Shown here: piece after piece, positions 2,091-7,363 of the stretch | Position numbering within the stretch: position 1 is the stretch's first letter | How the letters are laid out: every line of letters starts with the position of its first letter | Origin: a virus | Taxonomy: Duplodnaviria > Heunggongvirae > Uroviricota > Caudoviricetes | Length of the DNA: 27,207 bases | Direction: 5' to 3' (one strand) | IMG/VR virus record: IMGVR_UViG_2619619134_000016 | The notes under the pieces: model-generated | Databases searched by the model: none | The model's input: the letters and a program-made list of their open reading frames with translations, nothing else | Told to the model about the DNA's origin: nothing | Position numbers and translations under genes: made by a program

Positions 2091-2595
2091 ACAGGCTCGT
2101 GAGGCTCTGGATGCCTGGATATGTCGACCAGGAATGACACAGGAGCAGGCGACGATATTAATCACTGAAGCATTCTGGGCTTTGAAAGAGCGCCCGAACA
2201 TCGATGTTCAGCGTGTCACAGATGAAGGTGGCGCGGTTGATCAGCGAGCGCTTGGTGTTAATCGAGTGAAGATATTCGAACGCTGGAAGGCTATCGACAC
2301 CAGGGATAAGCGTGAAAAGTTCACGGCGCTAGTGCCTGCGATTATGGAGGCTATCCGGATTAGTGATTTCAGGTTGTATCGTGAAATTACTGACGGAAAA
2401 AGCATCACGTGCATGATCGCCGGGTTAAACAAAGAATATGGCGATGTGGTGGAGTCCGGACTGCTTTTTGCTGATCCTGCCGTAGTGGATCGTGAAACTG
2501 ACGAACTTATAGAAAAAGCAATTGCTTTCAAGCTTGCGTATCGACAGCAATACCAACAAAAAGCTGGATGGAATTATGAGCCTTCTTTTTGCTGA
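2074..2595 (+). CDS. Hypothetical early-region protein, 173 aa, in the cII/YdaT-like position after the cro-like gene
   Basis: 173-aa ORF whose ATG at 2074 overlaps the dicC stop; no motif I can assign. Confidence 0.45.
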   Translation: MKITPEQAREALDAWICRPGMTQEQATILITEAFWALKERPNIDVQRVTDEGGAVDQRALGVNRVKIFERWKAIDTRDKREKFTALVPAIMEAIRISDFRLYREITDGKSITCMIAGLNKEYGDVVESGLLFADPAVVDRETDELIEKAIAFKLAYRQQYQQKAGWNYEPSFC

Positions 2596-3541
2596 ACGCC
2601 CACTGGTTATAAACACGCAGCTGGCAATGAAAATTGGCTTAAACGAAGCCATTGTTTTGCAACAACTGCACTACTGGTTGAGAGATACCAACTCCGGCAT
2701 GGAATGTGATGGTGTTCGCTGGATTTATAACACAACGGAACAATGGCTTGAACAGTTCCCATTCTGGTCAGAGTCAACGTTAAAGCGCGCGTTTGCAAGT
2801 CTGAAAACGCTGGGGCTTTTGCGTTGTGAAAAGCTCAATAAATCAAAGCGCGATATGACCAATTTCTACACGATCAACTATGGGAGCGAGCTTTTAGATG
2901 GTGGCAAATTGAGCGAATCCATCGGTTCAAAATGCGCCGCTCCATCAGGTCAAAATGACACGATGGAAGAGGTCAAAATGAAACGCTCCATTGGTTCAAA
3001 ACGACCCAATGTCATCGGGTCAAAATGGCCTGATGATCTTACAGAGAATACAACAGAGATTACTACAGAGAATAAAAACACTTTTCGTCCGGAAGCTTCG
3101 CAACCGGACCCGCAGACGACTGAACAGGATTCTTTAACCCGGAACTCCGACGCGGTTGTGTTTAGTGCGAAAAAACGCCAGTGGGGTAGCAGGGAGGATT
3201 TGGCGTGTGCGCAGTGGATCTGGGGGCGGATCGTGGGTCTCTACGAACAGGCAGCCAGTGATGATGGCGAGATCATGCGACCAAAAGAGCCTAACTGGAC
3301 TGCCTGGGCCAATGACGTGCGCACAATGCGGATGCTGGATGGCAGAAGCCACAGACAAATTTGCGAAATGTTTGGTCGGGTTCAGCGAGATCCATTCTGG
3401 GTAAAAAACATCATGAGCCCGTCAAAGCTCCGCGAAAAATGGGACGAACTGGTCATCCGCCTGGGACGTTCACCTGTACAGCGTTGTGTTAATCATATTT
3501 CTGAACCGGATACAGAAATTCCGCCTGGTTTCAGAGGATAA
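2576..3541 (+). CDS. Phage replication initiation protein (O-like / replisome organiser), about 321 aa from ATG 2576; track ORF begins at TTG 2522
   Basis: Position after the immunity region; the coding sequence contains five tandem iterons followed by an AT-rich tract, the arrangement of ori-lambda inside gene O. Start codon choice is uncertain. Confidence 0.55.
   Translation: MSLLFAERPLVINTQLAMKIGLNEAIVLQQLHYWLRDTNSGMECDGVRWIYNTTEQWLEQFPFWSESTLKRAFASLKTLGLLRCEKLNKSKRDMTNFYTINYGSELLDGGKLSESIGSKCAAPSGQNDTMEEVKMKRSIGSKRPNVIGSKWPDDLTENTTEITTENKNTFRPEASQPDPQTTEQDSLTRNSDAVVFSAKKRQWGSREDLACAQWIWGRIVGLYEQAASDDGEIMRPKEPNWTAWANDVRTMRMLDGRSHRQICEMFGRVQRDPFWVKNIMSPSKLREKWDELVIRLGRSPVQRCVNHISEPDTEIPPGFRG
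2924..3090. repeat. Candidate replication origin: five direct iterons GGT(T)CAAAA(T/C)G at 2924, 2948, 2971, 2993 and 3018, then an AT-rich tract (3031..3090) with ACAGAGAATA repeated at 3041 and 3065
   Basis: Repeats read directly from the sequence, spaced 22-25 bp apart. Confidence 0.55.
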
Positions 3542-3581: not shown

Positions 3582-4004
3582 GTGGCAAAAGTTTTTACAC
3601 AAGAAGAGCGGGAAAAAATTAAATGGCAGGTGGTGGAACTCGTGCGCCAGAGCGGCCGTGAGACGTTACGGCAACTGGAAGCTAAAACAGGTGCGACTAG
3701 ATATCTGATGAGCGTTCTTGCCAGAGAGCTGGTAGCCAGTGGCGATGTATACAACTCCGGCTACGGGTTATTCCCCTCTGAACAGGCGCGTAAGGACTGG
3801 CAAAACGCCCGCAAAAAACTCTCGAGGGCAAAGGTGAAGAAACCTGCTGTGGTTGATCCGGACCTTATCTGGTCATCACCTGACGGAGAAATACGTCGCT
3901 ACGACAGTCGCCTAAACATAATCTGTCGCGAGTGCCGGAAGAGCGAAGTTATGCAGCGCATACTGGCTTTCTATCAGGGTAATTTTCAGGACGTGGCGCA
4001 GTGA
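3582..4004 (+). CDS. Hypothetical phage protein, 140 aa, GTG start
   Basis: Track ORF; GTG at 3582 lies a few nt after an AGGGGGA Shine-Dalgarno. No recognisable motif. Confidence 0.4.
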   Translation: MAKVFTQEEREKIKWQVVELVRQSGRETLRQLEAKTGATRYLMSVLARELVASGDVYNSGYGLFPSEQARKDWQNARKKLSRAKVKKPAVVDPDLIWSSPDGEIRRYDSRLNIICRECRKSEVMQRILAFYQGNFQDVAQ

Positions 4005-4446
4005 GTGCACCGGCAACCATTCTTGATATGTGCTGTGGCAGCCGCATGTTCTGGTTCGATAAGTCTGACAAACGGGCGATATTCAGCGATATCAGAAAAG
4101 AAGGATACACATTACGCAATGGGAGACGCTTGATTATCAGCCCTGACATTATCGCAGATTTTCGTGCATTATCATTTGCAGACGCATCTTTTTCGATGGT
4201 TGTATTAGACCCTCCGCATCTTGAGCGTGTTGGTGATAACGCCTGGATGGGAAAGAAATATGGACGGCTGAATAAAGATGCCTGGCGTGATGATTTGCGA
4301 CAGAGATTTAAAGAAGCTTTTCGGGTGTTGAGGCCGCACGGCGTTCTGATTTTTTAATGGAATGAAACGCAAATACCGGTAAGCCAGATTCTGGCACTGA
4401 CAGATAGAAAGCCTGTTATCTGTCAACGAACAGGGAAAAAACGATA
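4001..4446 (+). pseudogene. DNA methyltransferase-like gene interrupted by an in-frame ochre codon (TAA 4355..4357)
   Basis: Product carries an FxGxG-like SAM motif (ILDMCCGS) and a DPPH motif resembling the DPPY/DPPF catalytic motif of N6-adenine/N4-cytosine methyltransferases. The frame continues after the TAA (WNETQIPVSQILALTDRKPVICQRTGKKR) to a stop near 4446, suggesting a point nonsense mutation. Confidence 0.45.
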
Positions 4447-6022: not shown

Positions 6023-7363
6023 ATGATCAAAGAGACTGTTACGATGAGTCATAAGGAACTCCACCGACTTCAGATTATTCAGGAGTCAATTAATCGACAT
6101 ATTACTCAGGAACAAGCTGCGGCACGCATTGGCATTTCTATTCGGCAGGTTAAACGTCTGGTGCAACGGTATAGAAATGAAGGGCCTTCTGGTCTGGTTT
6201 CCCACCGACGTGGAAAGCGTCCTAATAATTCCTTTTCTACTGAATTCAGAGCAACAGTAATTTCACTCCTCAAAGGCCGTTACGCTGATTTTGGACCTAC
6301 GTTTGCGTGCGAAAAATTGCGCGAGATACACGGTTTATCTTTATCCGTTGAAACTCTCAGAAAGTGGATGATAGAAGAGGGGTTATGGCGTGAACGCCGT
6401 CGTAAAATTGCCCGTATATATCAACGCCGCATGCGACGACCATCTTACGGTGAACTGATCCAGATTGATGGCTCACCTCATGACTGGTTTGAAAATCGAG
6501 GCCCCAGATGTACACTGATCGTTTTCATTGATGATGCCACCAGTGCGTTGATGGCGTTGCGTTTTGTGCCTGCTGAAACAACCCGGGCTTACATGGAAAC
6601 CCTCCGGGGTTACCTTAATGATCATGGCGTACCGCTCGCTCTCTACTCTGATAGACACAGTATATTCAGGGTAAATAACCCAGAGCGGGAAGGTGAGCTG
6701 ACCCAGTTCACTCGTGCGATAAAGACACTGGGCATCGAGCCAATCCATGCCAACAGCCCGCAGGCAAAAGGGCGGGTAGAGCGCGCCAATCAGACACTAC
6801 AGGACAGGCTGGTCAAAGAAATGCGGCTTCAGAATATCAGTGATATTGAAACAGCAAATGCATGGTTGCCGACCTTTATTGAAGCCTATAACAACCGGTT
6901 CGCTACGTCGCCTCGTACTACTGATAATGCTCATCTTGATGTGCACCATTCTGAAGAGGAACTGGGTTATATCTTCAGCCTACAGGCGAAGCGCGTTCTG
7001 TCTAAAAATCTCACTTTCCAGTACAAAAGCAGTGCGTTTCAGGTACGCAGTGAGAGCCGGGGATATCGACTTAGGCATTCGGTTGTTACTGTATGCGAGA
7101 ACTTTGACGGTGAAATTAACGTTCTGTATGACGGGAAAGCGCTGGGCTGGGAAAAGTATGTTGATGGCCCGGAGCCTATACCACTGGATGATGAAAAGAG
7201 TGTCCATGAACGAGTGGATAATGCCCGTATTGATTTACGCTCAAAATACTATGTTAAACCTAAAGCTGACCATCCCTGGCTTACGCGCCGAACGCAAAGT
7301 CATCAGCAAGTTAAGCCCCCGAAGTTACCTAAAAAGAAGCCTGATCCCGATAAAAAAGATTGA
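6023..7363 (+). mobile_element. Insertion-sequence transposase, single ORF of 446 aa, DDE integrase-core type with N-terminal HTH; IS481-like or ISNCY/IS1202-like; element ends not resolved
   Basis: N-terminal HTH (AARIGISIRQVKRLVQRY) and motifs consistent with a DDE triad (IQIDGS, YSDRHSIF, KGRVERANQTLQD). I could not identify convincing terminal inverted repeats or target-site duplication. Confidence 0.7.

Follow-up and report, generated by a model that had tools for sequence, protein, structure and literature searches.

In a stretch of 27,207 nucleotides (nt) from a virus of the Caudoviricetes (IMG/VR record IMGVR_UViG_2619619134_000016; the whole stretch is called the window below), the 321-amino-acid (aa) open reading frame (ORF) at 2576-3541 is, as judged by profile match and alignment, an O-like replication initiator, and the middle of its gene carries direct repeats (iterons), an A-rich AT tract and an inverted repeat that very probably form the replication origin of the phage. 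The best explanation of the data as a whole, which we consider probable, is that 2897-3109 would be the origin of a lambdoid (Qin/mEp460-like) prophage lying inside its own initiator gene, and that the initiator would engage the helicase loader through a C-terminal tail of the DnaT type. As an origin, the element is of a well-known kind, here in an initiator family from which none has been described before. The features of the gene are the following:

2576-3541, + strand: O-like replication initiator gene with the putative origin inside it (321 aa; match to phrog_391)
2576-2899, + strand: coding region of the N-terminal domain (aa 1-108), a predicted winged helix-turn-helix (HTH) and presumed reader of the iterons (AlphaFold, AF2, model)
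2897-2919, + strand: possible degenerate sixth iteron ('iteron 0'), core GCAAATTG (repeat search; a 67% copy, in register 23 nt 5' of iteron 1)
2920-2942, + strand: iteron 1, CATCGGTTCAAAATGCGCCGCTC
2943-2965, + strand: iteron 2, CATCAGGTCAAAATGACACGATG, a near-palindrome
2966-2988, + strand: iteron 3, GAAGAGGTCAAAATGAAACGCTC, the least symmetric copy
2989-3011, + strand: iteron 4, CATTGGTTCAAAACGACCCAATG, a near-palindrome
3013-3035, + strand: iteron 5, CATCGGGTCAAAATGGCCTGATG, a near-palindrome that adjoins the AT tract
3036-3080, + strand: AT-rich, A-rich tract with three 12-mers (T/A)ACAGAGA(A/T)TA, presumed unwinding element (composition; period-12 array)
3087-3109, + strand: inverted repeat GTCCGG-N11-CCGGAC, 3' of the AT tract (repeat search)
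3161-3469, + strand: coding region of a lambda-O-type C-terminal domain, aa 196-298 (alignment with lambda O; AF2 model)
3476-3541, + strand: DnaT-type C-terminal tail, aa 301-321, VQRCVNHISEPDTEIPPGFRG, plus stop codon (comparison with DnaT)

The iterons share the core TCAAAAYG, which starts at 2927, 2950, 2973, 2996 and 3020, always on the + strand, with spacings of 23, 23, 23 and 24. The five direct repeats that an earlier note on this DNA had reported from the 2924-3018 region are thus all in place. That note described the repeat as an 11-mer; each iteron is instead a unit of 23 base pairs (bp) with internal dyad symmetry. The 23-bp consensus, CATCGGGTCAAAATGACCCGATG, is a palindrome around a central A-tract, with copies 2, 4 and 5 clearly symmetric and copies 1 and 3 less so, and Tandem Repeats Finder returned a period-23 array at 2918-2991. 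These five cores are the only matches to TCAAAAYG on either strand of the 27-kilobase (kb) window. They lie within 101 nt, and first-order Markov simulations (n = 2000) gave at most two matches in any 120-nt span. Iteron 0 agrees with the consensus at about 15 of 23 positions by manual count, and a sixth iteron at 2897-2919 is accordingly a weak candidate.

Counted from the ATG, the cores begin at offsets 351, 374, 397, 420 and 444, that is in frames 0, 2, 1, 0 and 0, and encode GSK, GQN, VKM, GSK and GSK. Because they are translated in all three frames, they are repeats of DNA and not of peptide. The SIGSK-type linker previously ascribed to the iterons is borne out by three of the five cores, at which '(I)GSK' is read, and fails for the other two (GQN, VKM). 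The pattern of diversity among 31 distinct relatives (69-100% identity) agrees with selection on DNA: third-codon-position diversity was 0.172 in the N-terminal domain and 0.178 in the linker and C-terminal domain, as against 0.055 in the iterons and 0.022 in the AT tract, which is the most conserved stretch of the gene. Within the iterons and AT tract all three codon positions are about equally constrained, and the codon periodicity of diversity is lost. Residues 109-202, whose codons make up the iterons, the AT tract and the sequence that directly follows it, are disordered in the AF2 model and have a folded domain on either side; according to this model, the origin-encoded stretch is a disordered linker whose sequence would be dictated by DNA sites and not by the needs of the protein.

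A second line of evidence comes from natural recombinants. Searches for related loci returned the best 80 matches, mostly close relatives, and the 80 viral loci that have a nearly identical C-terminal domain fall into two groups whose N-terminal domains are unrelated. Genes with the second (type-B) N-terminal domain share the C-terminal domain and tail with the window, but carry iterons of a different kind (TTGACCCGTCAA, at 15-bp spacing) and a different AT tract, with the changeover at the inverted repeat. The window-type N-terminal domain is always inherited with window-type iterons. The inverted repeat at 3087-3109 is common to type-A and type-B genes and marks the recombination joint between the cassettes of N-terminal domain plus iterons and the C-terminal domain. 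By this comparison, the N-terminal half of O and its iterons are one specificity unit, which is the classical lambdoid pattern, and both the apparent selection at the DNA level and the co-variation with the N-terminal domain support the iterons as putative binding sites.

The AT tract begins 1 nt after iteron 5 and has a G+C (GC) content of 28-30% over 3036-3080, compared with 48% for the gene, and an AT skew of +0.57. An AT-rich stretch after the iterons had been noted before; at 30% GC, 3038-3080 is the lowest-GC 43-mer of the initiator gene. What had been taken there for a two-copy repeat of ACAGAGAATA turned out to be three units of a period-12 array, which start at 3040, 3052 and 3064 and span 3040-3077. 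Forty bp of this tract (3035-3074 of the window) are 97.5% identical in many O genes of phages converting for Shiga toxin (Stx), both Stx1 and Stx2. The tract of phage Stx2_EH2201 (L003 2508-2552) has four 12-mers; both protein domains and the iterons of its O gene are unrelated to those of the window. Since the tract is kept where the other parts of O differ, the presumed unwinding element seems to move between origins as a cassette of its own.

The likeness to the origin of lambda inside gene O, proposed in the earlier note, holds in position, order and protein. The iterons span 2920-3035, or 36-48% of the length of the initiator gene; the four iterons of lambda (ATCCCTCAAAACGAGGGA and variants, with spacings of 20, 24 and 23 bp) occupy 39-48% of gene O. 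Both origins lie mid-gene, and in both the direct repeats measure about 19-23 bp, show internal dyad symmetry, have an A-tract at the centre and recur at a spacing of 20-24 bp. The lambda iteron core, TCAAAACG, is almost the same as that of the window, the central TCAAAAYG being common to both. In both, the iterons are followed by an A-rich tract and then by an inverted repeat (TCAGAG-N14-CTCTGA in lambda). The window differs in having five, possibly six, iterons instead of four and in its palindrome arms, CATCGGG compared with ATCCCTC in lambda. More than four iterons are known from other lambdoid origins: those of the Stx phages P27 and 933W, also inside O, have six (PMC7466680). Phage mEp460_4F5 has the N-terminal domain and iterons in common with the window, at 78% DNA identity.

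The repeats might also be read as a slippage-prone or repetitive coding linker, or as sites for autoregulation or exclusion only, with replication starting elsewhere or the prophage being defective. Such a reading would suit the AT content of the tract, which is unexceptional for the window, and the RefSeq label of the gene, 'hypothetical protein' in most genomes. It is nevertheless very unlikely: the core occurs in three frames, so the peptide is not the thing that repeats; third codon positions are constrained within the repeats; the iterons change along with the N-terminal domain; the same gene occurs in isolated phages; and anatomy and position are as in experimentally proven lambdoid origins (PMC7466680).

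The profile search of the 321-aa product suggested in the earlier note assigned it to a replication family, phrog_391 ('replication initiation O-like'), as a full-length match at E 5.6e-91. Alignment with lambda O gave 40% identity across 92 aa of the C-terminal domain, and 31 columns were invariant in the three sequences aligned; tblastn matched O of lambda, phage 21 and 933W at E values of 5e-17 to 6e-17. 'DNA replication protein O' of PhiR42_1 is 99.8% identical to the window initiator gene; PhiR42_1 has a Qin-like early region and lambda-like head genes. The AF2 model of the whole initiator is of modest quality (mean predicted local distance difference test, pLDDT, 55). Within it the C-terminal domain is helical (pLDDT 65-87), and the N-terminal domain (pLDDT 60-82) combines helices with a beta hairpin at 82-100 in a winged-helix pattern over residues 10-105. 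Staphylococcal RepA_N plasmids, to whose initiators this domain has its best, though weak, fold matches, likewise have their origin inside the rep gene.

Replication would then start as follows. Dimers of the winged-helix N-terminal domain would bind the five, perhaps six, palindromic 23-bp iterons, which lie about two helical turns apart, and this binding would wrap the DNA into an O-some-like complex. By analogy with lambda, the resulting strain may open the adjacent A-rich tract of three 12-mers. The host helicase would be loaded next. Lambda O uses P for this step, and the window has no P, DnaC or DnaB gene. Here the DnaT-type tail may dock DnaC within the DnaB-DnaC complex, and phages that have an O homologue and no loader gene (O-only phages) would engage the host's own DnaC; for this last step we can offer no more than a tentative case, set out below.

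The last residues of the initiator before its stop codon are ...SEPDTEIPPGFRG, compared with ...NTDWIYGVDL in lambda O. This C-terminus fits [IV]-P-x-G-F-[RK]-G preceded by S-x-P-D; 14 of its last 21 residues are identical to those of Escherichia coli DnaT, and the conserved DnaT-like ending comprises the last 13 residues, S-E-P-D-x-x-I-P-P-G-F-R-G-COOH. The tail is predicted to be disordered in the AF2 model. Resemblance to DnaT stops there. With the NCBIfam DnaT model only profile positions 160-179 of 179 matched (16 bits, with a cut-off of 201), DnaT chains of the Protein Data Bank (PDB) aligned to initiator residues 301-321 only, and by neither route were the N-terminal domain or the three-helix-bundle C-terminal domain of DnaT found in the initiator. 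In two mEp460 records, mEp460_4F5 (L004 2956-3936) and mEp460_ev081 (LR597641), the O-like initiator is annotated 'Primosomal protein I'. Because only the tail of about 20 residues resembles DnaT, this label is, from the alignments, an over-annotation.

Scanning for IPPGFRG followed by TRR gave 120 viral loci, in all 120 of which the last codon was a true stop and in none TGG. This count covers IPPGFRG only; the DNA pattern that also admits the IPAGFRG variant is CCNSCNGGNTTYMGNGGNTRR. The IPPGFRG loci have at least three unrelated C-terminal domains, of the lambda-O, Stx-O and DUF1376/YdaU types, and at the fixed Pro, Gly, Ile and Asp positions of the tail three or four synonymous codons are found. 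In O-only lineages generally, ...IP(P/A/E)GFRG persists after a linker that has diverged; those in Citrobacter, Salmonella, Shigella and Klebsiella, together with phage LLS, keep ...IP(A/E)GFRG or ...GFRS although their linkers have diverged beyond recognition. LLS, SfII and mEp460_4F5 all end in ...IP(A/E)GFRG after differing linkers, and the window tail is the variant closest to host DnaT. Two Vibrio phages sampled that have a lambda-O-type C-terminal domain (n = 2) carry other tails. The acidic/aromatic C-termini of these phages, pA2SJ1 and K66 (L376 and L382), read ...GDGDFFIDG and ...GDPQFRF, and each O-like gene is followed by a related ORF of about 145 aa that could be an unrecognised loader or adaptor.

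In the literature searched, the string PPGFRG did not occur, and no report of a link between terminal motif and loader type was found. No partner of DnaT residues 160-179 is named in the accessible literature, which includes the 2026 cryo-electron-microscopy paper, the 2014 crystal paper and reviews, one of which calls this end a 'highly flexible 20-residue tail'. A combination of an O-like N-terminus with a DnaT motif is not unheard of, given the precedent of DopC, which has an O-like N-terminal HTH and a DnaT C-terminal motif (Brezellec et al. 2017, PMC5509034) and resembles the window initiator in both. Within DopC-DopE, DopC is a domesticated chromosomal gene in which no iterons were found and which is paired with a P-like loader (PMC5509034).

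The earlier note had seen no DnaC- or P-type loader downstream of the initiator, and this holds for the whole window, in which no P, DnaC or DnaB homologue was present. Its suggestion that the module may be incomplete is right in that a loader gene is lacking, but the O-only layout recurs in the isolated phages HannyBb and SfII and in plaque-forming LLS (PMC12315714), and the absence of a loader is therefore not decay. A survey of 2025 counted 34 O-only phages among 314 lambdoid phages, stated that their replication 'is not yet understood' and mentioned neither iterons nor the tail (PMC12315714); we sampled LLS, SfII, KpF5, mEp460_4F5 and ST147-VIM1phi7.2. Where relatives have DnaC or P, the window has the following gene:

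3582-4004, + strand: DUF977/Ren-like gene, starting 41 nt after the initiator stop (Pfam PF06163, E 5e-29)

Among 48 loci with the same N-terminal domain, the IPPGFRG tail and DUF977 downstream, the interval between the O gene and DUF977 was empty in 37, held DnaC in 10 (a share of 10/48) and held lambda P in 1. The tail had been considered as a substitute for a loader, present where a loader is absent. This was rejected, as in about half of the loci with the tail a DnaC homologue begins 7 nt beyond the stop. With DnaC beside about half of the tails, the relation was recast as one in which the tail goes with a loader of the DnaC type, be it of the phage or of the host.

Phage DnaC homologues were collected with an alignment query, since a single E. 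coli DnaC query returned only copies of host dnaC among viral contigs. These homologues are 48-54% identical to E. coli DnaC, and 74 of 79 lie directly 3' of a gene ending in [IV]P-x-GF-x-G. Single-linkage clustering of the proteins encoded upstream merged all of them because they are mosaics; redone on the C-terminal domain alone, it gave five unrelated families, four of which carry the tail. The tail-less proteins upstream of DnaC (L263 and three or four further loci) end in ...F-I-(S/P)-E-D-F (four loci) or ...KPPEFN (one locus), which may be a second kind of terminal motif. At L214 and 18 similar loci, the protein upstream of the DnaC homologue has, beyond the tail, apparently the whole DnaT C-terminal domain (...PEWHPGPDFVKQAALWGIQL...), which suggests shared ancestry of these phage modules with host dnaT-dnaC.

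Where the loader is P, the ending is another. Loci with a C-terminal domain identical to that of lambda O end in ...DWIYGV(D/E)L or a close variant followed by P in all 79 cases, and the diverged O proteins of SEN34, Mulock, Eho59, HK225 and Edno5 (5/5) end in ...NTDWxYG.., again followed by P. A close relative, P0036, has the window-type N-terminal domain and neighbours and a C-terminal domain about 75% identical, but ends in ...DWNSADGWEDVL and is followed by a Phage_lambda_P gene; from its sequence it is a natural swap of both tail and loader. The pairing of tail and DnaC also occurs in K-12. In the Rac prophage of E. coli K-12 (L373 1620-3230), YdaU, which has a DUF1376 and not an O-like N-terminus, ends in ...SLPDSAIPPGFRG / ...VNTVSLPDSAIPPGFRG, a DnaT-type tail; 7 nt beyond it begins YdaV, which is 50% identical to DnaC. 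In host dnaT-dnaC as in ydaU-ydaV, a protein ending in ...S-x-P-D-x-x-IPPGFRG is thus followed within 2-7 nt by DnaC or its 50%-identical homologue. The window shares only the last 20 or so residues with DnaT, and no DnaC gene follows. Stx2_EH2201, without a DnaT tail, encodes its own DnaC-like ATPase and DnaB-like helicase.

These comparisons show that, at the level of gene order, tail type predicts loader type. From the association of the tail with DnaC and of NTDWxYG with P, we infer that the tail may be a docking motif for DnaC. That it recruits DnaC-DnaB as a docking peptide, with O-only phages of enteric bacteria borrowing the DnaC of the host, is a serious possibility that falls somewhat short of an even chance.

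Several points weigh against the interpretation developed here. Support for origin function in the window is comparative throughout, and the composition of the AT tract is not exceptional, 7.5% of all 43-mers of the window being equally AT-rich. The 321-aa initiator matched no Pfam family at E <= 0.01, Phage_rep_O (PF04492) included. The best Foldseek matches of the N-terminal domain, to the N-terminal domain of staphylococcal RepA solved as a winged-helix domain with iteron DNA (5kbj and 4pql), were weak (E 0.02; target template modelling score 0.50), and RepA_N initiators show no sequence similarity to the window initiator and differ in host range and C-terminal domain; the N-terminal domain of DnaD (2v79) matched at E 0.64. 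As regards the tail, the evidence connecting it with a loader is gene adjacency, which is linkage and not physical contact, and the counts of 80, 79 and 79 overstate the number of independent events since the best 80 matches are mostly close relatives. According to the 2026 preprimosome paper, the mechanism of DnaB/DnaC recruitment is unknown, and the N-terminal domain of DnaT, not its tail, is the proposed candidate (PMC13377028). Finally, the last two tail codons, AGG GGG, double as the ribosome-binding site of dnaC in DnaC-bearing loci, and part of the tail conservation there is therefore at the DNA level.

This last point raises the question whether the tail has a function as protein at all. 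It could be part of a dnaC cassette, conserved for ribosome binding and translational coupling, and in O-only phages a recent leftover after loss of dnaC, with the helicase loaded by another route, such as contact of the C-terminal domain with DnaB, or DnaA. AGG GGG TAA forms a Shine-Dalgarno sequence 7 nt before the dnaC start, the codons are strongly biased, and the closest relatives with and without DnaC have an identical tail. Several observations nonetheless make this quite improbable. Pro, Gly, Ile and Asp are fixed despite their three or four synonymous codons, diverged O-only lineages keep ...IP(A/E)GFRG or ...GFRS, host DnaT keeps the same tail, and the next gene of the window, 41 nt away, has a ribosome-binding site of its own.

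Alternatively, the tail may dock PriA and/or PriB, the initiator acting as an origin-tethered DnaT that builds a PriA-type primosome at the opened AT tract. In the preprimosome structures the contact of the DnaT C-terminal domain with PriA is a small hydrophobic interface (PMC13377028), and the tail, with IPPGF, is hydrophobic as well; moreover, growth of the O-only phage LLS is better with RecBCD and apparently depends on recombination (PMC12315714), which would suit a restart-type route. The DnaT residues in contact with PriA are not stated, however (PMC13377028). PriA is present in all bacteria, yet the tail tracks loaders of the DnaC type (74/79) and is absent from the two Vibrio phages sampled, and if PriA were all that a phage needed, keeping the tail and dnaC together would serve no purpose. 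We therefore regard docking of PriA or PriB as unlikely and retain DnaC as the tentative partner of the tail.

In gene order the surroundings of the initiator comprise a cI-like repressor, Cro and a cII-like/YdaT protein upstream and the DUF977/Ren-like gene downstream. The gene directly upstream (2074-2595) is cII-like by PHROGs and 'toxin YdaT family' by Pfam and RefSeq and overlaps the initiator start by 20 nt; database entries such as P0001 (448 aa) fuse the two, probably as an artefact of gene calling. After DUF977, the ORF at 4001-4357 encodes a 118-aa fragment of a SAM (S-adenosylmethionine)-dependent DNA methyltransferase, corresponding to positions 52-165 of 229 of PHROG 954, and is probably truncated. 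A further ORF (6023-7363, 446 aa) lies where PhiR42_1 has a 'mobile element protein' and a 'transposase', and looks like an insertion sequence in the early-right region of the prophage.

As a whole, the module varies the lambda scheme: it is O-only, and its initiator has a DnaT-type tail. For annotation, the assignment concerns a gene that 1849 of 5426 complete E. coli genomes carry to at least 80% of its length, where it is mostly labelled 'hypothetical protein' (RefSeq), and which bears the name 'Primosomal protein I' in mEp460 records. More broadly, and at somewhat less than even odds, the last 13 or so residues of DnaT may be a portable docking peptide for DnaC or DnaB-DnaC, carried by initiators of at least four unrelated C-terminal-domain families; the ydaU-ydaV genes of K-12 are a ready-made pair that bears on the contact between tail and DnaC. 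If true, a tail-bearing initiator could rely on the DnaC of the host in place of a phage-encoded loader, and this would account for the O-only lambdoid phages; in replication restart, the PriA-PriB-DnaT preprimosome would recruit DnaB-DnaC through the same contact, which would supply the link missing so far.

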